A stretch of DNA of 64,000 nucleotides, from contig CAIRNJ010000102.1 in assembly GCA_903879915.1 (NCBI GenBank), forward strand, positions 13,200 through 77,199. The letters are read 5' to 3'. The DNA comes from an uncultured Elusimicrobia bacterium. Its GTDB lineage: Bacteria; Elusimicrobiota; Elusimicrobia; Elusimicrobiales; UBA9959. The position numbers were made by a program, and so were the translations under genes. Shown here in pieces: positions 2,396 to 24,200 of this stretch; the first letter of the stretch is position 1, and every line of letters begins with the position of its first letter. The notes below the pieces were generated by a model. The model was not told the DNA's origin and searched no databases. It saw only the letters and a program-made list of their open reading frames with translations.

Positions 2396-2429
2396 AGTTT
2401 TTAATAAGCGTCCCGGAACAGCTGCCCGC

Positions 2430-3797: not shown

Positions 3798-3812
3798 AAA
3801 GTTCCGGCAGCG

Positions 3813-4898
3813 TTACCGTATTTTCAGGGACGACAGCGCTATCAGCATCAGCATGATGCCGGCTATCCAGAAGCGCACCGTGACCTTCGACTCCGCTATG
3901 CCTTTAAGCTCGAAGTGATGATGGATGGGGGCCATCAGAAAAATGCGCTTTTTATTGCGCAGCTTGTACGACCCCATCTGCAGGATGACGGACAGCGTCT
4001 CCAGCAGGAAAATGCCGCCGGCCACGGGCAGCAGCAGCTCCTGCTTGGTGCAGATGGCCGCCACGCCGATGGTGCCGCCCAGGAACAGCGAGCTGGTGTC
4101 GCCCATGAACACTTCTGCCGGGTGCGCGTTGAACCACAGGAAACCCAGGCAGGAGCCGATCATGGCAGAAAGGAATACCGTCATCTCCCCCGCCCCTTCC
4201 ACGTAGATGATCTTGAAATAAGAGGCCAGCTTCATGTTGCCGGCCGAGTAGGCCAGGATGGCGAAGGTGAGGGCGGAGAACACTATGGTGCCCGCCGCCA
4301 GGCCGTCCAGCCCGTCGGTGAGGTTCACCGCGTTGGAGGAGCCGATTATTATGATCATCGCCAGGGCCGCGTAAATAAAGCCGAGGTGCAGGTACAGTTC
4401 CTTGGTGTAAGGAATGGAGAGCAGGGTGGCGTAAGCGGCGTTGGGCGGGTTGGCCGCCAGGTAGCCGGTGACCACCAGCGCGGCGAACAGCTGCAGCGAG
4501 AATTTGAAGGCCGAAGAGGCGCCGCGCGGATTCTTCTTCACCAGTTTGGTGTAGTCGTCCAGCCAGCCGGCGAAAGCCAGCACCACCGTGGTGAAGATCA
4601 GCAGCAGGATGAAGCGGTTGTCTATGCGTGCCCAGAGCAGGGTGGAGACCAGCAGCGTCATAAAAATAAGCAGGCCGCCCATGGTGGTGGTGCCCTGCTT
4701 CGCCAGGTGGGTCTGGGGGCCGTCGGTGCGCTGCACCTGCCCTATCTTGTAGGAGCGGAGCTTGGCTATCAGCCAGGGGCCCGCCAGCAGGCTGAGCAGG
4801 AAGGAGGTTATCAGCGCGCCGCCCGCCCTGAAGGTTATGTACTGGAAAACGTTGAGCGGGGTGAAGAATTCCTTGAAATAGTGCGCGTAGTAAAGCAT
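3813..4898 (-). CDS. mraY: Phospho-N-acetylmuramoyl-pentapeptide transferase
   Basis: 361 aa polytopic protein with MraY hallmarks (NAVNLTDGLDGLA, MGDTSSLFLGG, APIHHHFEL). AAGGAAC just upstream of the ATG could serve as the RBS. Confidence 0.95.
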   Translation of the reverse strand: MLYYAHYFKEFFTPLNVFQYITFRAGGALITSFLLSLLAGPWLIAKLRSYKIGQVQRTDGPQTHLAKQGTTTMGGLLIFMTLLVSTLLWARIDNRFILLLIFTTVVLAFAGWLDDYTKLVKKNPRGASSAFKFSLQLFAALVVTGYLAANPPNAAYATLLSIPYTKELYLHLGFIYAALAMIIIIGSSNAVNLTDGLDGLAAGTIVFSALTFAILAYSAGNMKLASYFKIIYVEGAGEMTVFLSAMIGSCLGFLWFNAHPAEVFMGDTSSLFLGGTIGVAAICTKQELLLPVAGGIFLLETLSVILQMGSYKLRNKKRIFLMAPIHHHFELKGIAESKVTVRFWIAGIMLMLIALSSLKIR

Positions 4899-4955
4899 AG
4901 GTTCCTTGGCGAAAAATGGTCAAGACCGGTCCGGCTGCGGCTGGCCCTGTCTATA

Positions 4956-4984
4956 TTTATATTTTATTACTTTTTTACCGTAAA
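4956..4984 (-). promoter_or_regulatory. Candidate sigma70-type promoter for mraY-murD-ftsW-murG
   Basis: The minus strand reads TTTACG-N17-TATAAA inside the only AT-rich stretch (about 4947-5000) between mraY and the divergent C11 gene. It lies about 50 nt upstream of the mraY ATG. Sequence pattern only. Confidence 0.3.
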
Positions 4985-5063
4985 ACATATTTCCCTAAAG
5001 GCCTATCGGCCTATCGCCCTAATTGCTCAGGCCCGCCCGCCCGGTGAGTATCATAATATACCA

Positions 5064-6356
5064 GTGAAAAAAACCGCTCTGCCCCCCGCTTTGCTGTTCA
5101 GCCTGGCTTTTTGCGCCGTGCCCGCGCGCGCGCAGCTTGAAGCGCTCACCGCCGCCGGCCTGCCGGCCGTAGCGGTCCCCGCCGCCGCCGAGCCCGGCCG
5201 CGCGGCCCAGGCCGAGTGGACGGTGCTCATTTACGTAAGCGCCCGCAATAACCTGGGCCTGGAAGCCATCAAGGACGTCAACGAAATGGAAGCCGCCGGC
5301 TCCACCGCTAAAGTTAACGTGGTGGCGGAGCTGGGGCGCATCAAGTGCGATCCCCCTTTCAACCCTTTTTCCAGCACGCAGGAACCGGTGCCGCCGCAGG
5401 CGGACTGGACCGGCTCGCGCCGCTTCCTGCTGGTGAAGGATACCGACCCGCTGAAGATAAATTCCCCGGTGCTGGCCCAGTATCCGGACGCCGACATGGG
5501 CGACTGGCGGCACCTGGCCGAATTCATAGCCTGGGGCAAGGCGGCTTACCCGGCGAAAAAATATATGCTGATAGTGGGCGGCCACGGCAGCGGCTGGCGC
5601 GGCGTAAAGCCCCCTCCCGGCGCGCCCAAGGGCATCGCCTACGATGACGTTTCAGGCAGCCATATCTCCCCCGCCGAGCTGGCGGAGGCTATAAAGGCCG
5701 GCGGCGGCGTGAACGTGTACGCCTCGGACGCCTGCCTGATGCAGACCATAGAAGTGATCTACGACCTGAAGGATTCCGCCGAGTATATCGTTGGCTCGCA
5801 GGAGGCCACGCCAGGCAGCGGCTATAACTACGAGGTTTTCCTGAACGCGCTGGCGGCGGCCCCCGGCGACGCCTTCGCCGCGGCGCAGCACGTAATGGCC
5901 GGTTTCTCCGGCTATTACGGCGGCCTTAAACAGTCGGTGACCATGTCCATAGTGCGCCCAGCTTACGCGGCTGAAATGGCCGGGAAAATGGACAGGTTCG
6001 CCCGGCTGGTGGCCGCTTCCCCCGCGGATATGAAGCTGTACCACGACAGGAAGTTCGGCCTGCGCTCCTACGACGACGAGGACGCCCGCGACCTGTACCA
6101 GCTGATGAAACTGTACTACGACAGCAGCCCCACGCCCGCCGTGAAAGAGGCGGCGCGGGACGTGATAGTGTTCCTGTCGGAAAAGCTGGTGGCGCGCAAC
6201 GACGCGGTGGGCTACAAATCCAAGGACTCCAACGGGCTTTCGGTCTACTTCCCCATCTTCTACATGAACTACAAGCCGAAGTACGAATACCTCTCCTTCT
6301 CCCGGGCCACCTACTGGGACGAAATGGTGAAAGCCGTAGTAGAATCAAAGAAATAA
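5064..6356 (+). CDS. Secreted clostripain-family (MEROPS C11) cysteine peptidase
   Basis: GTG start followed by a signal peptide (VKKTALPPALLFSLAFCAVPARA). C11-type motifs WTVLIYVSARNNL, catalytic-His context IVGGHGSGW and catalytic-Cys context YASDACLM. The upstream 3201-5063 part of the track ORF is an antisense shadow of murD/mraY. Confidence 0.75.
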   Translation: MKKTALPPALLFSLAFCAVPARAQLEALTAAGLPAVAVPAAAEPGRAAQAEWTVLIYVSARNNLGLEAIKDVNEMEAAGSTAKVNVVAELGRIKCDPPFNPFSSTQEPVPPQADWTGSRRFLLVKDTDPLKINSPVLAQYPDADMGDWRHLAEFIAWGKAAYPAKKYMLIVGGHGSGWRGVKPPPGAPKGIAYDDVSGSHISPAELAEAIKAGGGVNVYASDACLMQTIEVIYDLKDSAEYIVGSQEATPGSGYNYEVFLNALAAAPGDAFAAAQHVMAGFSGYYGGLKQSVTMSIVRPAYAAEMAGKMDRFARLVAASPADMKLYHDRKFGLRSYDDEDARDLYQLMKLYYDSSPTPAVKEAARDVIVFLSEKLVARNDAVGYKSKDSNGLSVYFPIFYMNYKPKYEYLSFSRATYWDEMVKAVVESKK

Positions 6357-6367
6357 AACTGCAGCCG

Positions 6368-8083
6368 CTATTCCTTCGCTCCTGAAGAGGGCGGGAAAAA
6401 GAACGCTGAAACGCTGCCCAGCTGCGGCTCGGTCTTCGCGCCGTCGGAATAGATGTAATAAGGGGCGCTGGTGTAGCCGTCCAGGTTGCGCAGCTTCACC
6501 AGCGCGGCGCGCTGCTCCTCGGTGAGCGTTCTGTTCACTTTGGCGAAGGCCATAGTGTAGTACCAGGAAACCTCTCCGTCCAGCTCGCCGTACCGGCGGC
6601 CCAGCGCTAGGACCTTTTCTTTGTCGGGCGCCTGGCCCGCCAGGTACTTGCGCAGCTCAACCGATATTTCCTGCCGCACTTTTATTATTTCCGCCATGGC
6701 CTTGCGCTGGAGGGGCAGCACCGCGTCCACGTGCCGGCGCTGCGCGGGCGTAAGCACCTCGCTGAGGAAGGCCTTGCCGCTGTCGCCGGTCACCGAGGTG
6801 CTGATGTCGAAGCTCTTCTTGCCCATGGCGGGCATGTCCTTCATGTAGAACCCGCCGAAGTAGGTGCCGTGCCGCTCGGGGCAGAAATACGTATCGGCCT
6901 TGACCGAGCCGGCGGTCCAGCTGAAGAACTCGCTCAGATAGGTCATGTAGGCCACGTTGAACATCTTGGGCTTGCCGCGGCCCGCCTCTTTGGCCTCGGT
7001 CTCGTCCAGCTCAGGCCAGGTGGCGAAATCGCCGAACTTCATTTTGGCGAAATAGGCCTTCTGTTCCGCGCTCAGCGACAGCCAGACCTTGGCCATTACC
7101 TCGGCGCGGCGGCGGCTGAGCTCGGCGTCCACTTCAAAGATCCTGCCGACGCTCCGCATTACCGCGGCCTTATTAAGGCCGGTGCTGCCCGAAGGCAGCT
7201 GCTCGTCCTTCTGCATGTGGAAAGCTTTTATGACCGGCAGGCGCAGTTTGGCCAGTGCTACCAGCTGCGGCTGCTGTTCCTCGGCCAGGTCTATGAACAG
7301 CTGCTTCTGTTCGGCCGTTAGGTTATGCGCCACGTTGCCGGCCACCCGGCTGAGGAAGATCGGGTTATGCCCTTTCTTGGCGGCGTCGATGTCGCGCATG
7401 TACTGGAAGCCGAAGAAATCGCACACCTTGCCCGGCGGGATGAACGTGGCCGCGCCGAAATCCCCGGTAAGGAAAGCCAGGCCGTTGAAGGCGATGGTGG
7501 TAAGCTGCGCGTTGTCCGAGACGGCCTGCTCGAGGTTATACCGGCTGCCGCCCTCCTTGCCGCCGCCTTTTCTTCCGGCGCCTCCGGGCCCCCCCTTGCC
7601 CTGGCTGCCCCGCATTCCTCTTTCGCCGTCTTCCGCGCCGGGCCTGTCCGGGGGCGGGTCCATCTGTTTAAGCATCTCGGGATCGAACCCGACGGAGATC
7701 AAAAGTTCGTCTTCAACTGGACCACCCTGCACGCCTATATCCCGCAGGGCCTTGTGTATGGCCTTGGCGTCTTCGGCCGACAAGGCCGAGGCGTCGTACT
7801 TCGAAACTATTTCCGCGGCGCCGGCTTTTTGTTCTTCGGTGATGGTCTGTGAGCCGCCGCGCTCCTGCCTGCTGTTCGCGTTCCTGGACGGCCTTTGCCC
7901 GGATCTCTGCCCGGTCCGCTGTCCCGGCCTCGGTCTCTGGTCCTGCCCTCGCGCCTGCCCCCGTTCCTGCCCCTGGTCCTGCTCCTGCCCCGCTCCCCTG
8001 CCTTCGTCGTCCTGGTCCTGAGCCCGGGCCAGCGGCCCGCCCAGAACCAGCATATAGATGGCCGCCGTTATTAAAAATTTCAT
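6368..8083 (-). CDS. Secreted protein: signal peptide, Gln/Arg/Gly/Asp-rich disordered region, short helical segment, then the uncharacterised X domain with LTXXQ-like motifs (paralogous to the centre of the 1253-aa protein)
   Basis: Start moved to ATG 8083 (MKFLITAAIYMLVLGGPLARAQ signal peptide, GGAGAA RBS 6 nt upstream). The C-terminal ~370 aa align by eye with aa 605-1023 of ORF 8851..12612. Shared blocks: YN[IL]..., FPPGKV.D[YF].GFQ[FY][LM]RD, GHNP.F, LPSG.TGL, FSW..G.V.AD.YFCPER.GTY.GGFY.KD.PAM. Confidence 0.7.
   Translation of the reverse strand: MKFLITAAIYMLVLGGPLARAQDQDDEGRGAGQEQDQGQERGQARGQDQRPRPGQRTGQRSGQRPSRNANSRQERGGSQTITEEQKAGAAEIVSKYDASALSAEDAKAIHKALRDIGVQGGPVEDELLISVGFDPEMLKQMDPPPDRPGAEDGERGMRGSQGKGGPGGAGRKGGGKEGGSRYNLEQAVSDNAQLTTIAFNGLAFLTGDFGAATFIPPGKVCDFFGFQYMRDIDAAKKGHNPIFLSRVAGNVAHNLTAEQKQLFIDLAEEQQPQLVALAKLRLPVIKAFHMQKDEQLPSGSTGLNKAAVMRSVGRIFEVDAELSRRRAEVMAKVWLSLSAEQKAYFAKMKFGDFATWPELDETEAKEAGRGKPKMFNVAYMTYLSEFFSWTAGSVKADTYFCPERHGTYFGGFYMKDMPAMGKKSFDISTSVTGDSGKAFLSEVLTPAQRRHVDAVLPLQRKAMAEIIKVRQEISVELRKYLAGQAPDKEKVLALGRRYGELDGEVSWYYTMAFAKVNRTLTEEQRAALVKLRNLDGYTSAPYYIYSDGAKTEPQLGSVSAFFFPPSSGAKE
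7853..8023 (-). repeat. Low-complexity coding repeat (QDQ/GQR/GQE-rich, about 57 aa)
   Basis: Encodes AQDQDDEGRGAGQEQDQGQERGQARGQDQRPRPGQRTGQRSGQRPSRNANSRQERGG. The DNA shows a cryptic cctg/ctgc periodicity. Confidence 0.6.
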
Positions 8084-8129
8084 AAAGTTCTCCGTTTCCG
8101 CTGCGCCGGGTCTGTCCGCTCTTAACCAC

Positions 8130-8157
8130 TTAAACCTCAGATAGCGTAAAAAGTTCC
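8130..8157 (-). promoter_or_regulatory. ECF-type promoter candidate, site B (upstream of the X-domain gene)
   Basis: The minus strand reads cGGAAC-TTTTTACGCTATCTGAG-GTTTAAg (N17 spacer). Intergenic, between the PEBP stop (8168) and ATG 8083. Same architecture as sites A, C and D. Confidence 0.45.
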
Positions 8158-8167
8158 GCAAGCTCCG

Positions 8168-8788
8168 TTACTGTCCTTCCCCCGGCGGCGGAGGCGGCGG
8201 CCCGTCCGCGCCGTCACTGCCCGGCTCCGTGAACCGCTCATAGATCACGCTGAATTCGGCTGAGCCGAGTATCAGCCCTTTCATGGCCGAGAGCAAAGTT
8301 TCCCGGTTTACTTTCTCCGGCTTAACAGTTATCCTCGGCGCAGCCGACAGCGCGTAGACGGTGTAGATATATTTCTTCGGCCCCGGGCCTTTCGAGTGCG
8401 GCGGCGCGTAGCCCGCCCGCCCGTTCACGCTGTTAGTTCCCAGTATCCCTACGCCTTTTACGTTCTTAGGCAGTTTCCTGGTTTTTGCAGGAATATCGTA
8501 AATTATCCAGTACCATTTGGTCTTGTCCGGCGCGATATGGTGCATGATCAGCGCGAAGCTCTTAGCTGCTTTCGGCGCGCCGCTCCATTCCAGCGGCAGC
8601 GTGGCGCTGGCCCCGTCGCCGGTATATTCCACGGGCAATTGGCCGCCGTCCTCTACGGCGGGGCTCCTGAGCACAAAACCGGCCGCGGAGCTTTTTTTCT
8701 CCGCGCCTTGCTCCGGCTGCGCCGGGGCGCCGCCCGGAAAGGACAGCGCCAGCAGCCCGCCCAGCGCTAAAATAATAAACCGTTCCAT
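8168..8788 (-). CDS. Secreted PEBP/YbhB-YbcL-like protein with a Pro-rich C-terminal tail
   Basis: Start moved to ATG 8788 (MERFIILALGGLLALS signal peptide, GGGAGG RBS). PEBP-like core: LPLEWSGAPKAAKSFALIMHH...KWYWIIYDIP...GYAPPHSKGPGPKKYIYTVYALS. Ends in GPPPPPPGEGQ. Confidence 0.7.
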   Translation of the reverse strand: MERFIILALGGLLALSFPGGAPAQPEQGAEKKSSAAGFVLRSPAVEDGGQLPVEYTGDGASATLPLEWSGAPKAAKSFALIMHHIAPDKTKWYWIIYDIPAKTRKLPKNVKGVGILGTNSVNGRAGYAPPHSKGPGPKKYIYTVYALSAAPRITVKPEKVNRETLLSAMKGLILGSAEFSVIYERFTEPGSDGADGPPPPPPGEGQ

Positions 8789-8802
8789 ATTTCCTCCCGA
8801 TA

Positions 8803-8830
8803 TTAAACAGCTTTGCCCGCAAAAAGTCCA
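8803..8830 (-). promoter_or_regulatory. ECF-type promoter candidate, site D (upstream of the stand-alone PEBP gene)
   Basis: The minus strand reads tTGGAC-TTTTTGCGGGCAAAGCT-GTTTAAt (N17). The -35 is imperfect (TGGAC). It lies only about 15 nt from the ATG, so the leader would be very short. Confidence 0.3.
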
Positions 8831-8850
8831 ACTGCCCGCCGCCCACTTTC

Positions 8851-11800
8851 TCACGGCGCTGTATAGGTCAGCGTCATTGTCGCGGAACTGATAGTGATCC
8901 CCGAAAGCGCGGCCGTAAGAACTGAACCTGTCACCGGTGATGAAAGCGACGGCGCTGCGGACAGGGCGTAGAGCTTATACGTATAAAGCCTGTTGCCGCC
9001 GCCGCAGGGCGGGTTGTAGGCCGTTCCCAGCGGCCCGTCGCTGGTCCCCAGGGTCCCGCCGCCCGTAGTATTCTTGGCGAAGCCTGAACTGCTGCCTGGT
9101 ATGCCGTAGAGTACCCAGTTATACTTGGTCTCTAACTGCGGCGTAACTTCAGACATAGTCAGTGCGAACTGCTGCGTTCCCGAGGGCGCATTGGTCCAGG
9201 ACATGGCGGGAGATGAACTGGAACCGGAACAGGAATATTCCAGCGTCATGGCCCCGCCGCCCGTACCCGCGCCGCTCGTCAGGGTAAAGAGCGCCTGTGT
9301 GACGCTCACCATATGGCTTGCGGAGCCCGAGCCGGCGGAGTTCGAGGCCGTAAGCGTTACGGTATAGGTGCCTGAGGAGGCGTAAACGTGCGCCGGGTTC
9401 TGTGCTGAGCTGGTTGCCCCGTCCCCGAAATCCCAGGCCCACGAGGCAGGGGCGCCGCCGGAGGCGTCCGTGAACGAGACCGTACCGCCGGCGGCAGGAG
9501 AGGAAGGAGAGAAGGAGAACGCCGCCGAGGGCGCGTCGGTGGCGAACAGGTAGTCGGTATCGTCGATATACGGCGTTATCCTGGCCAGCACGGCGGGGTC
9601 GGTGGTGGTGTCCGAGTAAAGGTAAGTGGATCTGCAGACAGAATAGTCGTAAGGGGTCCCGTTGCTATAAGTGCTGATAAGCAGACCGTCCCAGAAATCC
9701 GTCTTCAGATGGGCCCTCTGGGCGGCGCTCAGCGAGTCGGCTACCTGCTTGAAAGTTGTGGCGTAGTAGTAATTGTTAATGCCGTCCAGCGTGCCGTAGG
9801 TGGCCGAGGACAGCGCCAGCACCTGCGCCCTGACGGCGGCGCTGGAAGCGGTAGAGACCAGCAGGGTGCGCAGCAGCGCCGCTATCTGCGCGCGCACTGC
9901 CACTATGCCCTCCATATTGCTCCGCTGCACCTCGATGAGGTTCGTCATGATGGCGGCCTGCGTGGACGCCACGTAGCCCAGGGAACTGTCGAGCAGGGCC
10001 GCCCCGGCGTTGCCGGTCAGCGCGGAGTCTATGGTGTAGCTGACGCCCTGTGGCGCGTTCATGGCCGGCGCGTCCTTGATATAGAACCCGCCGTAATAGG
10101 TGCCCTGGCGTTCTGGGCAGAAATAGACGTCGGCCTCGACGTTGCCGGAATACCAGCTGAAGAGGTCGCCGGCGTAGGTCATTACCAGGGTGTTCATCGT
10201 GGTATTTGAAGCGTTGGCGCCCAGCGCGGTCTCTACCCTTGTCTTCATGTAATTGGCGTCGGTCACGGTCCAGGAGGAAGCGCCCACCCCTTTCATGGCG
10301 TCCAGCTCGGCCAGCTGGGCGCGCGTCATGGAATTATAGACGTTGGCGTAAGCCAGGGCCCGGTCGAAGGCTATCTGGCCGTCCATGAGGTAGAGTTCCT
10401 GCGACACGGCCGTTACCGCGCTCAGGCTGAGGCCGGTGGCGCCGGAAGGGATGTTCCCGTCCATCAAACGCCGGAAAGCTTGTATCAGCCTGAAGCGGTG
10501 ATAAGCGTACTCGTTGACCTGGTCCGCCTGGCTCACTGCCAGGGCCGCCAGCTGCGCCAGCTGGGAGTCGCTGAGTATCCGGATGACGCTGTTGGAGGTC
10601 AGGCCCGTGAAATCCGGGTTGTGCCCCATATTGCTGGGGTCGCTGTCCCGGAGGAACTGGAACCCGGTGTAGTCGGCCACTTTGCCCGGCGGGAAGTACG
10701 ACTGCGAGCCCAGGTTGGCGTTCATCAGGCCGAGGGCGTCGAAGGCCAGCGTGGTGCCCTGGGCCTGGTCGGAGATGCCCTGCGAAATATTATAGGCCGG
10801 CACGGTGACGGTTATAGAGCGGGTCAGCGTGGCCGAGCTGATGGAATTGGCGACCCTGAGCGTGACGGTGTAGCTGCCTGCCGAGCTGTAAACGTGCGTC
10901 GGGTACTGGGCGGTGCTGGTGGACGTGTTGTCGCCGAAATCCCAGGCCCAGGAAACAGGGGCGTTCTGCGAGGCGTCGGTAAAGCTTACCGTGTTATAGG
11001 TGGTAGGGCTGCTCGGGTAGAAGCTGAACGCGGGCGAGACGTTCGCCCGGGCGTAGGTCAGGTTCAGCGCCGCCGAGCTGATGATAAGTGAGGAGATGGC
11101 GCTGGTAAGCACGTCGCCGGTCACCAGGTCCGCTGCCGGCAGGGACGGCGCGCCCGACAGCGCGTATAAAGTGTAGGTATAGACCTTTGGCCCGGGGCCC
11201 TGCGAGCAGGGGGCGGCGTACTCCTGGCTTTGCGTGTCGCTGTTCACGCCCGCGGTGCCCACGCCGGAAGTGTTCTTGTCCAGGCCGGAGGCCGCCGCCG
11301 GTATGGCGTACAGCACCCAGTTCCATTTTGTGCTCCCGTCGCCCGGCAGCGTGGTCATGAGCAGCGCGAACTGCTGCGTGCCCGCCGGCGCGCCCGACCA
11401 GGCCAGGGCCGGGGAGGCGTACGCGCCGTCGCAGGTGTACTCGGCGGCCATGGCCGCCCCCTCCGCGCCTACGGGGCTGGTCAGCGCGAAGGCGCCCGCC
11501 GCCGCCACGGTTACGGTATGGCTGACCGCGCTGGAGCCCGCCGTATTCGCGGCCGTGAGGCTCACCGTGTAGCTGCCGGAGGAACTGAAAACGTGGGTCG
11601 GGGATTGCAGGGTGCTGCTTGAGCCGTCGCCGAAATTCCAGGCCCAGGAAGCGGGCGTGTAGGCAGAGGTGTCCGTAAAAGTCACCGTCTGGCCGGCGGT
11701 GGGCGAGGCGGGCGAAAAACTGAAGGCGGCTACGGGCGCCGACGATACCGCTGCCTGCGTATAGGTCAGCGTCATGGCGGCCGAACTTATGATCAGGCCC

Positions 11801-12612
11801 GAGAGCGCGGCCGTAAGAACGCCGCCCGTCACCTGCGCGGGGTCGGACGAAAGCGACGGGGCTCCGGACAGGGCGTAGAGCGTGTACGTATAAAGCCTGT
11901 TGCCGCCGCCGCAGGGCGGGTTGTAGGCTGTTCCCGCCGCGCCGTCGCTTTTGCCCGCCGTGCCGCCGCCGGTGGTGTTCTTGACGAAGCCGGAGCTGCC
12001 CGCCGGTATGCTGTATAGGACCCAGTTATATTTCGTCTCCAGCTGCGGAGTTAGTTCGGAAATGGTCAGCGCGAACTGCTGCGTGCCGGACGGCGCGCTG
12101 GTCCAGGCCATCGCCGGCGAAGACCCGGCTCCGGAGCAGGAATATTCCAGCGCCATAGCCCCGCCGCTCGTGCCCGCGCCGCTCTCCAGGGTGAAAGTCC
12201 CCTGGCTGACAACGGTCACTGTATGGCTTACGCTCCCGGCCCCCGCGGAGTTGGAGGCCGTAAGGGTTACACTATAACTGCCGGACGAGGCGTAGACGTG
12301 TGTCGGGTTCTGTGCCGCGCTGGTTGCGCCGTCGCCGAAGTTCCAGTCCCAGGAAGAGGGGCTGTTGACGGAGGCGTCGGTAAAGGTTACGGCCTGGCCG
12401 GCGGCCGGTGAAGCAGGAGAATAAGTGAAGGCCGCGGCCGGCGCGGCGGCCAGCGCGGCGGCCGCGGCCGCCCGCTTGTGTTCCGTCACCTTTTCGTCCA
12501 TCGTAGTCACCGCATGTTTTACCGCGCGGGTCATGCCCATATTGATCCCGGCGGACAGCGCGGCGGTCAGCGGGAACAGCGCGGCGAACAGCAGGCAATA
12601 AAGTTGTTTCAT
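8851..12612 (-). CDS. 1253-aa secreted modular protein: SP-[PKD-PEBP]-[PKD-PEBP]-PKD-X domain-[PKD-PEBP]
   Basis: Signal peptide MKQLYCLLFAALFPLTAALSA. Four PKD-type repeats (F.[FY].P..P..G..V.FTD.S...P.SW.W.FGDG..S....P.H.Y...G.Y.V.L...N). Three PEBP-like modules (P.[ML][AS]W...P.GTQQFAL...KYNWVLY.IP...Y.PPC...Y.Y.LYALS). Central ~420 aa are paralogous to ORF 6368..8083. The ATG lies 1 nt after the stop of the upstream barrel gene. Confidence 0.8.
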   Translation of the reverse strand: MKQLYCLLFAALFPLTAALSAGINMGMTRAVKHAVTTMDEKVTEHKRAAAAAALAAAPAAAFTYSPASPAAGQAVTFTDASVNSPSSWDWNFGDGATSAAQNPTHVYASSGSYSVTLTASNSAGAGSVSHTVTVVSQGTFTLESGAGTSGGAMALEYSCSGAGSSPAMAWTSAPSGTQQFALTISELTPQLETKYNWVLYSIPAGSSGFVKNTTGGGTAGKSDGAAGTAYNPPCGGGNRLYTYTLYALSGAPSLSSDPAQVTGGVLTAALSGLIISSAAMTLTYTQAAVSSAPVAAFSFSPASPTAGQTVTFTDTSAYTPASWAWNFGDGSSSTLQSPTHVFSSSGSYTVSLTAANTAGSSAVSHTVTVAAAGAFALTSPVGAEGAAMAAEYTCDGAYASPALAWSGAPAGTQQFALLMTTLPGDGSTKWNWVLYAIPAAASGLDKNTSGVGTAGVNSDTQSQEYAAPCSQGPGPKVYTYTLYALSGAPSLPAADLVTGDVLTSAISSLIISSAALNLTYARANVSPAFSFYPSSPTTYNTVSFTDASQNAPVSWAWDFGDNTSTSTAQYPTHVYSSAGSYTVTLRVANSISSATLTRSITVTVPAYNISQGISDQAQGTTLAFDALGLMNANLGSQSYFPPGKVADYTGFQFLRDSDPSNMGHNPDFTGLTSNSVIRILSDSQLAQLAALAVSQADQVNEYAYHRFRLIQAFRRLMDGNIPSGATGLSLSAVTAVSQELYLMDGQIAFDRALAYANVYNSMTRAQLAELDAMKGVGASSWTVTDANYMKTRVETALGANASNTTMNTLVMTYAGDLFSWYSGNVEADVYFCPERQGTYYGGFYIKDAPAMNAPQGVSYTIDSALTGNAGAALLDSSLGYVASTQAAIMTNLIEVQRSNMEGIVAVRAQIAALLRTLLVSTASSAAVRAQVLALSSATYGTLDGINNYYYATTFKQVADSLSAAQRAHLKTDFWDGLLISTYSNGTPYDYSVCRSTYLYSDTTTDPAVLARITPYIDDTDYLFATDAPSAAFSFSPSSPAAGGTVSFTDASGGAPASWAWDFGDGATSSAQNPAHVYASSGTYTVTLTASNSAGSGSASHMVSVTQALFTLTSGAGTGGGAMTLEYSCSGSSSSPAMSWTNAPSGTQQFALTMSEVTPQLETKYNWVLYGIPGSSSGFAKNTTGGGTLGTSDGPLGTAYNPPCGGGNRLYTYKLYALSAAPSLSSPVTGSVLTAALSGITISSATMTLTYTAP
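8854..9534 (-). repeat. C-terminal PKD-PEBP module (aa about 1027-1253)
   Basis: By eye its protein sequence is about four-fifths identical to the N-terminal module (11755-12432). The DNA differs at many third-codon positions. Confidence 0.7.
9544..10800 (-). other. X domain within the giant protein (aa about 605-1023), uncharacterised, with four LTXXQ-like motifs
   Basis: Motifs LSDSQLAQLAAL, MTRAQLAELDAM, VASTQAAIMTNL and LSAAQRAHLKTD occupy positions equivalent to LTAEQKQLFIDL, LSAEQKAYFAKM, LTPAQRRHVDAV and LTEEQRAALVKL of ORF 6368..8083. Confidence 0.6.
11047..11730 (-). repeat. Second PKD-PEBP module (aa about 295-522)
   Basis: Its PEBP part (STKWNWVLYAIPA...APCSQGPGPKVYTYTLYALS) is the module closest to the stand-alone PEBP gene (KTKWYWIIYDIPA...GPGPKKYIYTVYALS). 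Confidence 0.65.
11755..12432 (-). repeat. First PKD-PEBP module (aa about 61-286)
   Basis: Near-duplicate (at protein level) of the C-terminal module at 8854-9534. Confidence 0.7.
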
Positions 12613-12613
12613 A

Positions 12614-13207
12614 TCAGTACAGGAACAGCAGTGTCTGCGTGTCGCTCTTTTTGGAATTAGAGCGCTTCTTCTGCTGTTTCCCCCTTTTCCCGGCGGTACG
12701 GGCCGCGCCGGCTTTGCCGCCGCCCCAGTAGAAATTAAGCCCGAAATTAGCCACGTATTCGATAGCCCCGGCCGATACGGGCTCGTTTTTGTCCCGCAGG
12801 TAAATATAGGCCGGTCCGAAATCGGCCTGCAGCGAGGCGTCCGGAGCTAGGAAGCATTCGAAGCCTGCGAACAATTCCCCCGCGGCCCCGGCCCCGCGGC
12901 TGACTTCTCCCTTGAACTGTATGTAATCCGCTTCCGCGCCCAGGAACAGGTACATCGCCGCCGACGGGCGGTAATAGCTGTACAGGCGCAGGCCGCCCAC
13001 CGTAACGCCGCCGTCTGCCTGCCCTTTGGCTTCCAGCGCGTAGCGGTCGCTCATGAAATACCTGATACTTAGCCCCGGGTAATTGAAGCCCAGCCCGAAG
13101 GTGCCCCTGCCGGCACCCTGGCCGGCGCATGCCGCGCGGCAGCCCAAAAGCAGAATGCTGAAGCAGAAGCAGACGACCGCTGCGGTATTCCGGAAAGGCT
13201 TGAGCAT
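12614..13207 (-). CDS. Small outer-membrane beta-barrel protein (8-strand type) with a Lys/Arg-rich C-terminal tail
   Basis: Preferred start is ATG 13207 (MLKPFRNTAAVVCFCFSILLLGC...). Alternating aromatic/Gly beta-strand pattern (FGLGFNYPGLSIRYF, LRLYSYY, YLFLGAEADYIQF, ELFAGFECF, IEYVANFGLNFYW). Then the tail GGGKAGAARTAGKRGKQQKKRSNSKKSDTQTLLFLY. The start codon choice (13207, 13219 or 13231) is uncertain. Confidence 0.55.
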   Translation of the reverse strand: MLKPFRNTAAVVCFCFSILLLGCRAACAGQGAGRGTFGLGFNYPGLSIRYFMSDRYALEAKGQADGGVTVGGLRLYSYYRPSAAMYLFLGAEADYIQFKGEVSRGAGAAGELFAGFECFLAPDASLQADFGPAYIYLRDKNEPVSAGAIEYVANFGLNFYWGGGKAGAARTAGKRGKQQKKRSNSKKSDTQTLLFLY

Positions 13208-13241
13208 ATGCGTATCCATACACAGGTACACATCCGCTTAT

Positions 13242-13269
13242 TTAAACAGCGAAACCGGAAAAAAGTTCC
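13242..13269 (-). promoter_or_regulatory. ECF-type promoter candidate, site A (upstream of the barrel + giant protein genes)
   Basis: The minus strand reads cGGAAC-TTTTTTCCGGTTTCGCT-GTTTAAa (N17), immediately after the terminator hairpin and about 35 nt upstream of ATG 13207. Confidence 0.45.
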
Positions 13270-13294
13270 GCCCTGAAAACGGATGTTTTCAGGG
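13259..13294 (-). terminator. Rho-independent terminator after the sigma/anti-sigma/LTXXQ operon
   Basis: Perfect 10-bp stem CCCTGAAAAC/GTTTTCAGGG (13271-13280 / 13285-13294) with a 4-nt loop. On the minus strand it is followed by CGGAACTTTTTT. It starts 42 nt after the stop at 13336. Confidence 0.65.
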
Positions 13295-13335
13295 CGTGTA
13301 TGGGGAGCGCGCAAGCCTGGGCGCGGCGCGAGGTT

Positions 13336-13743
13336 TTAGCGCGGTGCTCGCCTGTCCGGGTCTTCTCCGTCGCGGGGCGGCGGCGGCCTGTTTTCGCGGC
13401 GTTTGGAATCGTTGTCCAGTTCTTCCAGCCTGGCGTACTGCTCCGGCGTAAGGACGATCCTCAATTCCGACTTGATCCTCCGGCGCAGTTCTTCTAATCT
13501 GGGCTGTATGGAATCCTTCGTCTTTTTTACTTCTGGCCGGTATTTATTGAAAATGGCCGAAACCTGCTCCTGCTGGGGGCCGGAGAGGCCGAGCTCGCGG
13601 GTGAATTTTTCTATCGCGCCTTCGGCGGGGACCGGCTGCGGCGGCCTGCGTTTAAGATGCATATGATAATAATCGGAGAACAGGGCGCCCATCAGGACGC
13701 CCGCGGCCACGGCTGCGGCTATCTGGTTCCAGCGTATGTTCAT
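13336..13743 (-). CDS. Periplasmic LTXXQ-motif protein (Spy/CpxP/ZraP-like, the 'periplasmic heavy metal sensor' family)
   Basis: Start moved to ATG 13743, which overlaps the anti-sigma stop (ATGA). N-terminal TM/signal anchor IAAAVAAGVLMGALF, then LSGPQQEQVSAIF and LTPEQYARLEEL motifs. Basic/Pro-rich tail. Confidence 0.7.
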   Translation of the reverse strand: MNIRWNQIAAAVAAGVLMGALFSDYYHMHLKRRPPQPVPAEGAIEKFTRELGLSGPQQEQVSAIFNKYRPEVKKTKDSIQPRLEELRRRIKSELRIVLTPEQYARLEELDNDSKRRENRPPPPRDGEDPDRRAPR

Positions 13744-14228
13744 TTGTCCGCTCCTTCCAGCATGGTCAAAAGGTTCCCCCCGCCGGCCGCAGGGCCTTCG
13801 GAGAAGATATTGGAAAGGGGTGAGCCTGAACTCCGGGCGGCCGGAACGGAGAACTGGCGCGCCGGCATAAGGCCGGTCTCGACGCACAGAACGTAGACGG
13901 CAAAGGAGGCCAGGGTCATGGCCGGCACTTTCCACCAGCCCGCCAGCGCCGCGCGCGTATCCGGTGAAAGCGCGAACGGGTTGAAACCGGAAGCCTGTTC
14001 TTCCGCCTGCCCGGCCCGGAGCTTCGCCATCAGGGCATCCACGAATTTATCGCCCAGCGCTGGAGCCTCGTACAGCTCCAGAGCCTGCCAAGCTTTGGAG
14101 AGCAGTTCAGCTTCTTTGCGGCAGGAGGCGCATTCTTCAAGGTGGCCGCTAAGTTCCGCCTTTTCGGAGTCATTCAGGCTGCCGGAAAGGCCGCCGGCTG
14201 AAATTTCCATGGCTCTTTTACAGTTCAT
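13740..14228 (-). CDS. Anti-sigma factor, zf-HC2 type, single-pass membrane protein
   Basis: H-x3-C-x2-C motif (HLEECASC) near the N-terminus and one predicted TM segment (VPAMTLASFAVYVLCV). Immediately downstream of the ECF sigma gene. Confidence 0.75.
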   Translation of the reverse strand: MNCKRAMEISAGGLSGSLNDSEKAELSGHLEECASCRKEAELLSKAWQALELYEAPALGDKFVDALMAKLRAGQAEEQASGFNPFALSPDTRAALAGWWKVPAMTLASFAVYVLCVETGLMPARQFSVPAARSSGSPLSNIFSEGPAAGGGNLLTMLEGADK

Positions 14229-14248
14229 AAACTATCCCCTCTCATAGG

Positions 14249-14276
14249 TATAACCGCCGATCATTGAAAAAGTTCC
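14249..14276 (-). promoter_or_regulatory. ECF-type promoter candidate, site C (inside the 3' end of the sigma gene, upstream of the anti-sigma gene)
   Basis: The minus strand reads cGGAAC-TTTTTCAATGATCGGCG-GTTATAc (N17). The GGAAC overlaps the last sigma codons (..AELFQ*). The -10-like element differs (GTTATA), so it could be coincidental. Confidence 0.3.
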
Positions 14277-14848
14277 GCCAGTTTTTCTTTCAGGCCGAGT
14301 TTCGCCCTGTGAAGAATGGATTTTACCGCCTTGGCCGAGCAGCCCATGACCTCCGCGATAGCTTCGTAGGAGAGTTCGTCGTAGCGGCAGAGCAGCACGG
14401 CAGTTCTTTGGTTCTCAGGCAATGAAGCCAGGGCTTTTTTTACCGCCTCGGCCTGTTCTTTTCTGATCAGCAGCTCCGCGGGCGGCAGATCTTTCGGGTC
14501 AGCCAGCTGCAGGCCGGGCGCGTCTTCCTGCGCTTCAGGCTTTTCGTCCAGAGGGACGAAAAGGCCCCTATGCCCGCGTTTAGCCAGAAAATTCAGACAG
14601 GTGTTGCGCGTAATGGTGAACAGCCAGGTGGTGAACTTCGCTTTTACCGTGTATTTGTTCCGGGCGTTGTAAACTTTAATAAAAACTTCCTGCGCGGCGT
14701 CCTCGGCGTCGGCGGCGTTGCCCAGGAACCTGTAAGCGAAGGCGAAAACCCGCTGCTTATGGGTTTTGACCAGCTCTATGAAGCAGGACTCCTCCCCGGC
14801 GATAAAGCGGAGCATCAACCGCGCGTCCTGGTCGGGATCCTCTGTCAT
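14261..14848 (-). CDS. ECF (group 4) RNA polymerase sigma-70 factor
   Basis: 195 aa. Region 2 (AEDAAQEVFIKVY...FTTWLFTITRNTCLNF) and region 4 (LPENQRTAVLLCRYDELSYEAIAEVMGCSAKAVKSILHRAK). The ATG overlaps the stop of the upstream PD40/TPR gene (ATGA). Confidence 0.9.
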   Translation of the reverse strand: MTEDPDQDARLMLRFIAGEESCFIELVKTHKQRVFAFAYRFLGNAADAEDAAQEVFIKVYNARNKYTVKAKFTTWLFTITRNTCLNFLAKRGHRGLFVPLDEKPEAQEDAPGLQLADPKDLPPAELLIRKEQAEAVKKALASLPENQRTAVLLCRYDELSYEAIAEVMGCSAKAVKSILHRAKLGLKEKLAELFQ

Positions 14849-17322
14849 TTATCTATGGACCGTGTTTCCTGCGCGGCCAGCGCGCTCTTCAGGTGACGGG
14901 CCGCGCTGTCCAGGTCGGGGTCGATGCTTAACGCTTTCCTGTAGGAAGCCAGCGCTTCGTCCCGGCGGCCCAGCTTTTCCAGCACCGCGCCCAGGAGGTC
15001 GTACGTACCCGCGTATTTCGGCTCCAGCCTTATCACTTCTCGGTAATGGGTTTCGGCCTCGCCGAACTCGCCGCGCGCCGCGAGCAGGGCCGCTAAAATG
15101 TCGTGAATGGCCACGTTGTTGCGGTCCAGCCGCGCCGCTTCCCTGTATTGCTTCACGGCCTCGGCCGGAGTACCCTGCGCTTCAAGGGCGGCGCCCAGCT
15201 CGGCGTGCAGCAGCGCGGTGTCGGGGCTCAGCTTCAGCGCCGCCAGGTATTTCTCTATGGCTTCAGCGAGCATTGCTTTTCTTTCCGCCCCGGAATATTC
15301 CGCCGGGCCCGGCGGCACATAGTCGTAGCGGGCTTTCAGCGCCGCGTGGTAATTGGTCCTGTCATCAGGCAGCAGGCTCTGCATGCCCAGGGCGCCGGCC
15401 AGATAATAGAACACGATAGCCGAATCCGGCCGCGCATTTATTGAGTCCCTGTAATGGCCGATCGCGCCTTTCAGGTCGCCGCGCTTAGCCAGGAGCAGGC
15501 CCATATTGGCGTGCGCGTGGGGATCGTTGGGGGCTAATTTAAGCGCCTCGTTCAAATGAGAGAAAGCCTCCTCGCGGCTGCCGGTCTTCTCCAGCGCAAC
15601 GCCCAGCAGGATCTGCACTTCGGTGTTCCCTGGGTCGAGCTCCAGCGCTTTGCGGTACGAAGCTATGGCTCCGCCGCTGTCGTTGGCCCTGGCGAACTCG
15701 AGGCCCGCCCGGTGGAAGGAAAGGCTGTCCAGGAACCTTTCGCGTATCTTTTTAAGTATGCCGCCTTTAGCCGGGAGGAATTCCGGGATGTTGGCCGCCC
15801 TGTCGGGCGCGGTAAAGCCGTCCAGCAGGACAGGGGGCGTATCGTTGCCCTGCGCGTCGATATGGGTAAGAAAAAGCTGTGTATAGGGCGTGTTGGCCTT
15901 GGAGGCGAAGACCAGCCAGCGGCTGTTGGGCGACCAGCTGTGCCAGGAGTTCATCGTGGGTTGGTTGCAGCGCATTTTCCTGGCTTCGCCCCCGCCGGCG
16001 GGCATGATATAGAGCTCGCTGTCGGGCTGCAGCAGCATGAAACTTTTCGCTTTGCAGAATATTATCCATTTCCCGTCGGGCGAATATTTCGGGAAGAAAT
16101 TGCTCATGCCGTTATCGGAAGCGCCCTGCAGCGGTTCCGGCTTGCCGCCGCGGCCTTCGTTGAAAGCAACGCGGTAAAGGTCGAACAGGAATTTCTGGCC
16201 GCCTTCCAGGAATTCCGCGCATTCTTCCTTCGCCAGCAGCACCTTGTCCCTATCGCGCAGATTTTTCAGCTTATGCGCCAGGTTCCTGGCGAAAACGATA
16301 TACTTGCCGTCGGGGCTCCAGGCGGGGTTGCTCTGTACGAATTCGGGGTCGTCAGCGCCCGGCAGCGCCTGGAAGGTCTTAGCCGCGCGGGAATAGACGG
16401 CCAGGATGCCGCTGACCGGAAAAAAAAGCTGCGAGAAGGCCAGCCCCGGCGTGGCCACGAACACCGAGCGGTCCTTGACCGTGCTGACCGCGTACCGCCC
16501 GTCCGGGGAAACCTGCGAAAGCAGGCCGAAGGTCTGGACGCCTTCCGTCCTTTTATAATCGTGCCAAGTGATGATCTTGCTTTTGTCGAGGATGGTCTCT
16601 TCGAGCACCCGGGCGATGGCGTAGGAGCCTTTGTCGTTGGCGTAATCCACGTCCATGCCCAGCACCGAGCCGTCGGCGGAAAAGGAATGGCAGTTGCCGC
16701 AGACCGGCAGATTCTCCAGCACTACCGGGGGCTGCGTTCTCAGGGAGACCTTCCCCAGCCGCCAGCGGATGCGCGAGGGGTCCTTTACCGCCTCGCTGAA
16801 CGGCAGGTTCACTTCCCTGTAGAACAGCGGCGCCTCTACTTTGTCTTTGGAGGTGCTGAAGGAAATGCTGCCCGCAGACAGGATATTTCCGGGCGCGCCG
16901 CGGGCGGCGCCGGCCACGGTAAGCCTGGCGGTCCGCTCCAGCGACCGGCGTTTGATAAGCTCCCAGTCGTCGTTGCCGGGAGTCCACTCCGGGGCCGCGG
17001 AAATAAAGCTCAGGCGGCCGCCGGCCGCGCCGGAGAATTCTATAGTCACCAGCCACAGGTCCGCGGCGGCGTTGTTGTCTTTCCAGCGGAACCCGGGGGC
17101 CGCTATGTCCGCCGGGAAAAGCGTGCCGTCGAAAGGTTTCTCGAAGGTTATGCCGCCGTCAGCCGCTCCGCTCCTGTAAGCCGCCAGCAGGGCGGCCAGG
17201 GCGGGGTCGGGCCTGGCCGGCGCGGCCGAGATAGTGCGCAGCAGCCCGGCGCCCAGTACGGCCAGCAGCAGCAGCGCGGCGCGGCGGTGCTGCTGTACTA
17301 TGAAGAGCGTGATGGTTCTCAT
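14845..17322 (-). CDS. Secreted protein: N-terminal domain with a single CXXCH motif, TolB-like PD40 beta-propeller repeats, C-terminal TPR repeats
   Basis: Signal peptide. VCGNCHS at aa 207-213. PD40-type repeats (VSPDGRYAVSTV, WSPDGKYIVFAR, YSPDGKWIIFCK, WSPNSRWLVFAS). At least five TPR-like units in the last ~270 aa (for example AIASYRKALELDPGN, AIGHYRDSINARPD, ALASYRKALSIDPD). Confidence 0.75.
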   Translation of the reverse strand: MRTITLFIVQQHRRAALLLLAVLGAGLLRTISAAPARPDPALAALLAAYRSGAADGGITFEKPFDGTLFPADIAAPGFRWKDNNAAADLWLVTIEFSGAAGGRLSFISAAPEWTPGNDDWELIKRRSLERTARLTVAGAARGAPGNILSAGSISFSTSKDKVEAPLFYREVNLPFSEAVKDPSRIRWRLGKVSLRTQPPVVLENLPVCGNCHSFSADGSVLGMDVDYANDKGSYAIARVLEETILDKSKIITWHDYKRTEGVQTFGLLSQVSPDGRYAVSTVKDRSVFVATPGLAFSQLFFPVSGILAVYSRAAKTFQALPGADDPEFVQSNPAWSPDGKYIVFARNLAHKLKNLRDRDKVLLAKEECAEFLEGGQKFLFDLYRVAFNEGRGGKPEPLQGASDNGMSNFFPKYSPDGKWIIFCKAKSFMLLQPDSELYIMPAGGGEARKMRCNQPTMNSWHSWSPNSRWLVFASKANTPYTQLFLTHIDAQGNDTPPVLLDGFTAPDRAANIPEFLPAKGGILKKIRERFLDSLSFHRAGLEFARANDSGGAIASYRKALELDPGNTEVQILLGVALEKTGSREEAFSHLNEALKLAPNDPHAHANMGLLLAKRGDLKGAIGHYRDSINARPDSAIVFYYLAGALGMQSLLPDDRTNYHAALKARYDYVPPGPAEYSGAERKAMLAEAIEKYLAALKLSPDTALLHAELGAALEAQGTPAEAVKQYREAARLDRNNVAIHDILAALLAARGEFGEAETHYREVIRLEPKYAGTYDLLGAVLEKLGRRDEALASYRKALSIDPDLDSAARHLKSALAAQETRSIDK

Positions 17323-17337
17323 GGCGGCTGGTTTCCT

Positions 17338-20781: not shown

Positions 20782-20862
20782 GATTAATTTTACTACAGTT
20801 GCAAGGTTATCTGTACATAAGGTGCCTAGATACGGCCACTTATAAGAAAGGCCAGAGCACTA

Positions 20863-23876: not shown

Positions 23877-23881
23877 TTCAG

Positions 23882-24091
23882 CTATTTTCCCTTGAGTACC
23901 TTTGGGTGGGTAGGCGGCGGGATGGGGTCCGGTTGAGGTGATGTGTCGTCCTTTCCGGCGTTCAGGCTAATATCATAGCCAGTAGAAGAAGTAAGCGCAT
24001 ACCCATGCTCGGGGAACAGCGACAATGCTATGAAAGATAACATTCCGGTAAAAATAATGTTCACCAGAGCCGCTAAAAGTGTTTTCTTCAT
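23882..24091 (-). CDS. Small (69 aa) secreted/anchored protein with a Pro-rich C-terminus
   Basis: ATG 24091 with GGGGAA upstream. MKKTLLAALVNIIFTGMLSFIALSLF hydrophobic N-terminus, then ...DDTSPQPDPIPPPTHPKVLKGK. Its stop lies 5 nt before the SBP-like gene start. No recognisable family. Confidence 0.4.
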   Translation of the reverse strand: MKKTLLAALVNIIFTGMLSFIALSLFPEHGYALTSSTGYDISLNAGKDDTSPQPDPIPPPTHPKVLKGK

Positions 24092-24200
24092 TGTATTCCC
24101 CAATTAGAAACGGTAGCCATTTCCCCATTACTTCATTATATATACTTTAACAAATAATGATGAAGAGCAAAAGTGGCATTAGGCCTATTCGGGTATAGGT

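Follow-up and report, generated by a model that had tools for sequence, protein, structure and literature searches.

The canonical pocket of the phosphatidylethanolamine-binding protein (PEBP) family is built from five polar sites, occupied by Asp, Asp, His, His and Arg, which lie in the DPDxP motif, the W-x-H-W strand and the GxHR motif; in human PEBP1 the pocket histidine is H86 and the GxHR motif supplies His118-Arg119, and the strand reads W-x-H-W in YbhB. These residues have been reported to be substituted "exceedingly rarely", with multiple replacements only in mitoribosomal L35/L38 and plant PYBHB, and their invariance is the main argument for one conserved molecular function of PEBPs (PMC8793217). 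Here we describe four PEBP-fold domains that have lost these motifs, encoded in a 64,000-nucleotide stretch of DNA (the window) from an uncultured Elusimicrobia bacterium. One makes up a stand-alone secreted protein of 206 aa, and the other three, modules A, B and C, are part of a giant secreted protein of 1253 aa encoded by the neighbouring gene. The four domains belong to a coherent bacterial PEBP branch, and a full-text literature search returned no description of this branch or of its association with a second domain, which we call X. The branch is at odds with the presumption that the PEBP pocket is near-universal, and the swap of five residues throughout a large secreted branch represents a natural experiment on what this pocket can become.

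We are confident that all four are PEBP-fold domains, modules A, B and C by hidden Markov model (HMM) evidence alone. Against PF01161 (cutoff 24 bits) the stand-alone protein scored 73.8 bits (E 2.3e-20) over HMM positions 2-135 of 135, and the giant protein 149.7 bits (E 8e-44) over three stretches, the best of which (residues 388-520) corresponds to module B. An AlphaFold2 (AF2) model of the stand-alone domain, built from a 70-sequence alignment, had a mean pLDDT of 94.7 and a pTM of 0.90, and in a Foldseek comparison with the PDB the top 21 matches at E<=1e-3 were all PEBP-fold proteins, led by Chlamydia CT736 (3n08; TM 0.87, rmsd 1.6 Å), with YbcL and YbhB at TM 0.85, and including Rv2140c and HP0218, then eukaryotic PEBP/FT/RKIP proteins and mitoribosomal mL38. 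An earlier note on this DNA, made from the sequence alone, had suggested that the loss of the motifs lowers confidence in the PEBP call itself, and had allowed that no PEBP fold might be predicted at all; given the Pfam, AF2 and Foldseek results this concern proved unfounded, and the idea that the domains are not truly PEBPs is ruled out. Scores against TIGR00481 (cutoff 57.75 bits) were 52.3 for the stand-alone protein, 72.8 for the giant protein when summed over its three modules, and 60.0 for an X-PEBP fusion from Pontiella. The name given by NCBI to close homologues is "YbhB/YbcL family Raf kinase inhibitor-like protein", and an automatic name of this kind tells little about these genes.

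Within this fold, DPDxP and GxHR are absent from all four domains, as the earlier note had claimed. Three independent alignments were concordant in placing the motifs, namely phmmer against YbhB, YbcL and CT736, MAFFT, and a profile-profile alignment by hhalign of 70 homologues with a small canonical PEBP profile (probability 99.8%, E 1e-28). Neither these nor a regular-expression search of the four domains, which gave zero DPD, zero DxDxP and zero HR, recovered a hidden DPDxP or GxHR. The motif-equivalent stretches are FALIMHHIAPDKTKWYW and SKGPGPKKYIYTVYAL in the stand-alone protein, FALTISELTPQLETKYNW and GGGNRLYTYTLYAL in module A, FALLMTTLPGDGSTKWNW and GPGPKVYTYTLYAL in module B, and FALTMSEVTPQLETKYNW and GGGNRLYTYKLYAL in module C; all strings quoted earlier are present in the translations, those of module C having been implied and not quoted. 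At the DPDxP site the aligned segments are MHHIAPD (stand-alone), ISELTPQ (A), MTTLPGD (B) and MSEVTPQ (C), the pocket His is replaced by Tyr in the stand-alone protein (KWYW) and by Asn in the three modules (KYNW or KWNW), and the GxHR site reads GPKK, GNRL, GPKV and GNRL in the same order. The five polar sites are occupied by H, I or A, Y, K and K in the stand-alone protein, by E, L, N, R and L in modules A and C, and by T, L, N, K and V in module B. The stand-alone protein has three histidines, every one at a pocket-aligned position, and the modules have none. Of the two GxHR residues the Arg seems to be the less strict, as YbcL reads HH at this site.

The closest described bacterial proteins are YbhB, YbcL and CT736 (PF01161, TIGR00481; 1fjj, 1fux, 3n08), which share with the branch the fold (TM 0.85-0.87, rmsd 1.6-2.3 Å), the length and the scaffold strings P..W, W.W..Y.IP, Y.PP and Y.[FY].[VL][YH]AL, in agreement with the scaffold retention noted earlier. 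YbcL is likewise exported by a signal peptide, and CT736 carries the Cys pair that is kept in the T2 and T3 pocket types defined below. In contrast, the Asp pair of DPDxP is replaced in the branch by H/I, E/L or T/L, the pocket His by Y or N, and His-Arg by K-x or R-L; the G-P-G loop before the Lys is longer by three residues; and the domain partners of the branch are X, FGE (formylglycine-generating enzyme)-like, ASST (arylsulfotransferase)-like and PKD domains.

The replacements are themselves conserved. From 394 aligned domains we derived the signatures MHH / KWYW / PPHSK / KxY for type T1, M[HD]H / HWYW / PPCSK / KxY for an intermediate type, MTT / KWNW / PPCSQ / KxY for T2 and [IM]SE / KYNW / PPC / RLY for T3. 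The stand-alone protein is T1, with M82-H83-H84, K91-W92-Y93-W94, P129-P130-H131-S132-K133 and K138-K139-Y140 as pocket residues (numbering of the 206-aa protein); module B is T2-like and fits the signature of the T2 clade; and modules A and C are T3, a type found only in these two modules and their orthologues. Among 70 T1 homologues, M50, H52, K59, Y61, W62, P97, P98, H99, S100, K101, K106 and Y108 were invariant. The strings MHH[IV]xP[DE]..KWYW and PPHSKGPGPK[TK]Y are near-invariant in the homologues of the stand-alone protein from the various phyla. A search with the giant-module profile returned a second set of proteins of ~190 aa, with MMTTLPGDGTTKWNW and PCSQGPGAK[LV]YTFTLYAL, the same pocket as in module B. 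T1 and T2 have K106, S100, the G-P-G loop, Y108 and the Trp scaffold in common, and a second conserved Lys or Arg lies ahead of the W-x-W strand. Nine positions (25, 51, 52, 61, 87, 99, 101, 130 and 137) are conserved inside T1 and inside T2 yet differ between the two, and six of them (25, 51, 52, 61, 99 and 101) are canonical pocket positions or lie right beside one. Co-variation is almost perfect between positions 25 and 99, with G25/H99 in 171 sequences and C25/C99 in 161, which suggests a disulfide in T2 and T3 that would have been swapped for the pocket His in T1. Because the replacements are near-invariant across phyla and co-vary, we regard the pocket as redesigned and not decayed, and a simple decay or pseudo-domain is ruled out. 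The earlier note had proposed a single divergent subfamily with a remodelled pocket; the remodelling is borne out by conservation, co-variation and the tree described below, but there are three pocket types in the four domains and not one.

We propose, with moderate confidence, that these domains are secreted PEBP-fold modules for the recognition of small ligands, in which the canonical Asp/His/His-Arg anion pocket would have been rebuilt around an invariant Lys at the GxHR His site (K138). The T1 pocket would be lined by a cationic His-His / Tyr / His-Ser-Lys set, the T2 pocket by a neutral Thr-Thr / Asn / Cys-Ser-Gln set with its Cys in the putative disulfide, and the T3 pocket by Ser-Glu / Asn / Cys with Arg replacing the Lys. 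The pocket would thus still be a binding site of altered specificity. Its ligand is probably anionic and other than that of the canonical PEBPs, possibly a phospho- or sulfo-ester or an oxyanion, because the residue sets are typical of phosphate, sulfate and oxyanion sites and because the most constant neighbours of enzymatic type are hydrolases of phospho- and sulfo-esters. The N-termini of the 1253-aa and 206-aa proteins, and of a 571-aa protein encoded beside them, are hydrophobic and signal-peptide-like, and the predicted signal peptides would imply that the proteins act outside the cytoplasm, where a role in envelope stress or nutrient scavenging may be envisaged. H84, Y93, H131 and K138 of the 206-aa protein offer themselves as targets for mutation, and Pontiella sulfatireligans F21 as a cultured host.

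The stand-alone protein has hundreds of homologues at 51-96% identity, in Elusimicrobiota, Verrucomicrobiota, Planctomycetota, Lentisphaerae, Kiritimatiellota (including the isolate P. sulfatireligans F21), Hydrogenedentes, Riflebacteria, Sumerlaeota, Nitrospirales, Acidobacteriota and Omnitrophica, the nearest named relatives being Elusimicrobiota metagenome-assembled genomes (MAGs), and 342 stretches were counted in genomes of GTDB species belonging to many phyla. When 1.84 billion cluster representatives were scanned exhaustively with HMMER, 7331 PEBP-family clusters (50%-identity clusters, E<=1e-3) were detected, 154 of them at E<=1e-30, and with 154 against 7331 the branch makes up a small yet real part of the family. 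In a neighbour-joining tree, a rough one with few outgroups and without support values, every non-canonical type fell together, apart from YbhB, YbcL, CT736 and other HR-bearing sequences; the earlier note had asked whether homologues with the same substitutions form a distinct clade. T1 formed one subclade, the intermediate type a grade toward T2, and the three modules of the giant protein clustered beside T2. Variation of the pocket inside one polypeptide also exists outside this branch. In P0461, a metagenomic protein of 1295 aa, five or six PEBP domains follow one another in tandem; their pockets differ (HRY, HHY, HTY and GNY), and the first Asp is present in some and missing in others.

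The giant protein runs in the order signal peptide, PKD, module A, PKD, module B, PKD, X domain, PKD and module C. Modules A and C are 82% identical, and their DNA is 81% identical over 300 nt. This similarity reflects an internal duplication in the gene (8939-9238 against 11846-12145, and 9302-9539 against 12212-12449), the duplicated unit being PKD plus PEBP, with module A in the N-terminal and module C in the C-terminal copy. Orthologous giant proteins, which were recovered from their loci and were absent among the top matches of the module-profile search, occur in three other Elusimicrobia (L007, L010 and L011). Since these carry only two PEBP modules, module A is a lineage-specific extra copy. 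The T3 pocket of module C is kept in all three, where pocket positions are 84-95% identical and the overall identity is 79-90%.

The partner domain X occurs twice in the window, once within the giant protein (about residues 607-1010) and once as the body of the 571-aa protein, and the two are paralogues (BLASTP 33% identity over 430 aa, E 1e-63). The 571-aa protein consists of a signal peptide, a Q/G/R-rich low-complexity linker, the X domain, which is all-alpha and has invariant Cys/His motifs, and a Spy/CpxP-like LTXXQ part at the C-terminus, and its match to PF07813 (35.2 bits, cutoff 24.3) covers residues 470-557 only. X, of ~390 aa, has >3200 homologues, about 70% identical and spread over phyla, annotated at source only as "Spy/CpxP family" or "hypothetical". 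Its AF2 model was confident and all-alpha (pTM 0.87), but Foldseek gave no fold match in the PDB (best E 0.04, TM below 0.2); a sequence search of the PDB gave nothing below E 0.4, and a search of Pfam and NCBIfam gave LTXXQ and a weak Metal_resist match only, the remaining ~300 aa being without a family match. The most conserved motifs of X, PPGKVCDFFGFQYMRDID..KGHNP and YFCPERHGTYFGGFYMKD, lie in low-pLDDT loops of the model and may form a cofactor or metal site. Spy, CpxP, ZraP and CnrX (PF07813, PF13801) resemble X in having LTXXQ repeats in an all-helical secreted protein and an envelope-stress-type operon with an extracytoplasmic function (ECF) sigma factor and an anti-sigma factor. However, X is about 390 aa long against about 100-150, and its invariant motifs are absent from Spy and CpxP. 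The analysis of the PEBP branch has brought to light an abundant and conserved partner domain without a fold match in the PDB.

The T1 domain was found in 83 related loci as a stand-alone PEBP (25), an X-PEBP fusion (20), FGE-like-PEBP (19), FGE-like-PEBP-ASST-like (13), PEBP-ASST-like (3) and PEBP-X-PEBP giant proteins (3), and a few other T1 forms carry SGL propellers or EF-hands. An X gene was present in 14 of 19 stand-alone PEBP loci, mostly directly adjacent, and a T2 PEBP from an unrelated genome lies directly after an X homologue. Because PEBP and X are fused repeatedly, we infer that they act together, and the PEBP domains might work physically with X. This intimacy also bears on a serious if unlikely alternative, in which the pocket holds no small ligand and the domain is a module for protein-protein interaction or scaffolding, as in mitoribosomal mL38, its conserved surface forming an interface to X, FGE-like or ASST-like partners. 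A partner domain is nearly always fused to the PEBP domain or next to it, in the giant protein the PEBP domain alternates with PKD spacers like a display module, and mL38/MrpL35 and plant PYBHB (the AT5G01300 group), the only groups for which several replacements at the five sites have been reported, are thought to be functionally derived (PMC8793217). One of those two groups is a ribosomal subunit and the other a plant cytosolic protein, both eukaryotic, whereas the present branch is secreted and bacterial (Planctomycetes-Verrucomicrobia-Chlamydiae (PVC) phyla, Elusimicrobia and others), conserves its replacements and has fusion partners of its own. Against the scaffold reading, the co-varying, type-specific residues lie at canonical pocket positions and are not spread over the surface, small anions are typically bound by Lys, His, Tyr and Ser and by a Gly-Pro-Gly loop, and the occurrence of the same T1 pocket with X, FGE-like or ASST-like partners is hard to fit to a partner-specific interface.

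In the FGE-PEBP fusions (L013, L016, L020, L024, L025, L036, L041 and others), the T1 PEBP is C-terminal to an FGE-sulfatase-fold domain, an ASST-like propeller, EF-hands or an SGL propeller often come next, and sulfatase-family and Lcl_C genes are common neighbours. A regular expression for the catalytic Cys pair (C-x(3-5)-C-x-R-Y after RGGS) was negative for the FGE-like domains of 13 fusion proteins, in which RGG[SC]W, where present, is followed by SNGEFGHSRVS or YNGDYMRSRIS, and the best NCBIfam match was GldK/PorK. An active FGE in the fusion partners is ruled out by the absence of this pair.

Among the neighbouring genes, purple-acid/PhoD-like metallophosphatases occurred in 37 loci, and beside T2 genes too, and sulfatase-family genes in 17. 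In one Vicinamibacterales MAG (L086, 5433-6875), a 480-aa protein with a YHYH domain (PF14240) is encoded between two PhoD/purple-acid-like phosphatase genes and a T2 PEBP gene, and this protein is a further, uncharacterised partner of the PEBP-X system. The hydrolase genes raise the question of whether the domains could be enzymes themselves, with a new catalytic set of His, Tyr and Lys acting on what the adjacent phosphatases, sulfatases or ASST-like proteins use or release. The canonical D/H/H/D/R constellation has been argued to be catalytic (PMC8793217), near-invariance of polar pocket residues across phyla is the pattern expected for active sites, and the co-located genes encode hydrolases and transferases. 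We nonetheless consider an enzymatic role very unlikely, given that, according to PMC8793217 and to our knowledge, enzymatic activity has been shown for no PEBP, that T1, T2 and T3 have only Lys/Arg, Ser and Tyr in common, so that a common chemistry is not obvious, and that three copies on PKD spacers look more like avidity than catalysis.

Regulatory genes were also frequent, with OmpR-type two-component systems in 20-25 loci and ECF sigma factors in 11. The best NCBIfam matches of the neighbouring two-component systems were of the CusS/CusR type (kinases 255-265 bits, regulators 226-243), below cutoffs, and PhoR/PhoB models scored only slightly lower than the Cus/Czc-type models for the same kinases and regulators, all below cutoff. 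A MacAB-TolC-type tripartite pump adjoins the PEBP or X-PEBP gene in L001 and in P. sulfatireligans F21 (L017); the L001 pump lies downstream of a trio of ECF sigma, anti-sigma and Metal_resist-like genes, and the L017 pump downstream of a CusRS-like two-component pair. Features of this kind could be taken to indicate that the T1 pocket (His83-His84, Tyr93 and His131) is a Cu, Zn or Ni site. The system would then answer metal stress in the periplasm, and X, with its invariant Cys/His, and the LTXXQ proteins would be its metal chaperones or sensors. All three histidines of the stand-alone protein are at the pocket, its operon starts with an ECF sigma factor, an anti-sigma factor and a weakly Metal_resist/LTXXQ-like protein in an order resembling that of CnrYXH, and both the heavy-metal-type two-component scores and the adjoining pumps would fit. 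A metal site is, however, distinctly unlikely in our view: T2, T3 and all modules of the giant protein are free of His yet occur in similar systems with X, the two-component systems score below the cutoffs of these families, with PhoB/PhoR nearly equal, an invariant Lys within a metal site would be unusual, and neither a P-type ATPase nor an RND-type Cus/Czc transporter recurs in the neighbourhoods.

Several points weigh against the proposal of a Lys-centred pocket for an anionic ligand. The assignment of pocket residues depends on alignment to canonical PEBPs. The conservation of T3 is known only among close Elusimicrobia (79-90% identical) and is weak evidence of constraint, and the neighbour-joining tree is without support values and includes few canonical outgroups. 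The neighbours mix several themes (phosphatases, sulfatases, ASST-like propellers, MacAB-TolC and CusRS-like systems) and indicate no single substrate, and the window itself contains no phosphatase, sulfatase, FGE-like or ASST-like gene. A more far-reaching version of the proposal, which we put forward as doubtful, is that the Lys-centred branch and X form a new and widespread extracytoplasmic two-domain system of PVC bacteria, Elusimicrobia, Hydrogenedentes and others. Here, a retooled binding or catalytic site (His-His/Tyr/His/Lys in T1) would exchange a small ligand, anionic or containing a metal, with the Cys/His centre of X, whose all-alpha fold would be new, and the system would be wired to purple-acid/PhoD-type phosphatases and ASST-like propellers.

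In the window, the PEBP genes lie in a run of seven tightly packed co-directional genes on the minus strand (from 14848 to 6368), with the ECF sigma gene first and the gene of the 571-aa protein last (table below). This arrangement would be consistent with an envelope operon controlled by the ECF sigma and anti-sigma factors, which would produce one multivalent, PKD-spaced display protein with three PEBP domains and one X domain, together with a free pair of PEBP and X proteins. The same genes are called on the source contig, a public contig of 197.7 kb that encodes an identical copy of the 571-aa protein. The start of the stand-alone gene is most likely the ATG at 8788 and not at 8854; the ATG at 8788 is also the source-contig call and gives the 206-aa protein with the signal peptide MERFIILALGGLLALSFPGGAPAQ.

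Table. Genes, domains and segments of the window referred to in the text, in order of position (aa, amino acids).
Feature	Position	Strand	Remarks
mraY-murD-ftsW-murG	132-4898
1051-aa open reading frame	3201-6356	plus	high-GC artefact, overlapping antisense of mraY and murD
~19-kb block containing the PEBP operon	about 4900-24200
C11 clostripain-family peptidase, 430 aa	about 5064-6356	plus	true gene in place of the 1051-aa reading frame
X-LTXXQ protein, 571 aa	6368..8083	minus	PF07813 E 2.2e-8
Stand-alone secreted PEBP-fold protein, 206 aa	8168..8788	minus	pocket type T1; PF01161 E 2.3e-20
Giant secreted protein, 1253 aa	8851..12612	minus	Pfam: 4 PKD and 3 PBP stretches
PEBP module C of giant protein	8854..9297	minus	residues 1106-1253; T3: MSE / KYNW / PPC / NRLY; zero His
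X domain of giant protein	9583..10794	minus	about residues 607-1010; found by BLASTP to the 597-aa open reading frame; paralogue of the domain in the 571-aa protein; tblastn 10794-9589
PEBP module B of giant protein	11041..11493	minus	residues 374-524; T2-like: MTT / KWNW / APCSQ / PKVY; zero His
PEBP module A of giant protein	11752..12207	minus	residues 136-287; T3: ISE / KYNW / PPC / NRLY; zero His
197-aa protein, hydrophobic N-terminus	12614..13207	minus	2 nt upstream of the 1253-aa gene
135-aa predicted periplasmic protein, weakly Metal_resist/LTXXQ-like	13336..13743	minus	PF13801 E 8.7e-4, PF07813 E 3.3e-3, both below cutoff
Anti-sigma factor (zf-HC2), 162 aa	13740..14228	minus	PF13490 E 3.5e-4, 21.0 bits, below the 22.2-bit cutoff
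ECF-type sigma-70 factor, 195 aa	14261..14848	minus	Sigma70_r2 E 1.3e-21, Sigma70_r4_2 E 1.1e-17; heads the co-directional cluster
Segment of low GC content	20863-23876		GC 0.46-0.51 against about 0.62-0.65 elsewhere
Mur ligase gene	24201-25577

The zf-HC2 anti-sigma call rests on the place of the gene directly after the ECF sigma gene. The 135-aa protein occupies a CnrX/Spy-like place in the operon, its equivalent in L001 is also a weak Metal_resist match, and the order of ECF sigma, anti-sigma and LTXXQ-like genes is found in relatives as well. The 197-aa protein had no match in a Pfam scan; homologous reading frames lie upstream of the giant gene in L007 and L010, and a 185-aa gene is at the equivalent place beside the close relative P0012, and our guess is that it is a small envelope or outer-membrane protein. 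An Rfam scan of the window found zero structured RNAs.

The surroundings of the operon contain two peptidase genes, the C11 clostripain-like one, which converges on the operon from the plus strand, and an M16-like 1147-aa gene upstream. Inhibition of proteases is known for several PEBPs, namely yeast Tfs1 (carboxypeptidase Y), mouse PEBP (serine proteases) and Sulfolobus SsCEI, and the present domains could by analogy be inhibitors of the neighbouring peptidases. This is extremely improbable, as peptidase genes are not recurrent neighbours in the 83 related loci and the close relative P0012 has a metallophosphatase at the peptidase position.

The operon is inside a ~19-kb block, between the Mur ligase gene and mraY-murD-ftsW-murG, that also carries a TPR/PD40 gene of 825 aa, the M16-like gene and the C11 peptidase gene, and the block appears to split a dcw-type cell-wall cluster. 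The segment of low GC content extends over a histidine-kinase gene and an SBP_bac_5-like gene and may be a foreign insertion. At the other end of the operon, the C11 peptidase gene runs toward the end of the X gene, and ~11 nt separate the two stop codons.

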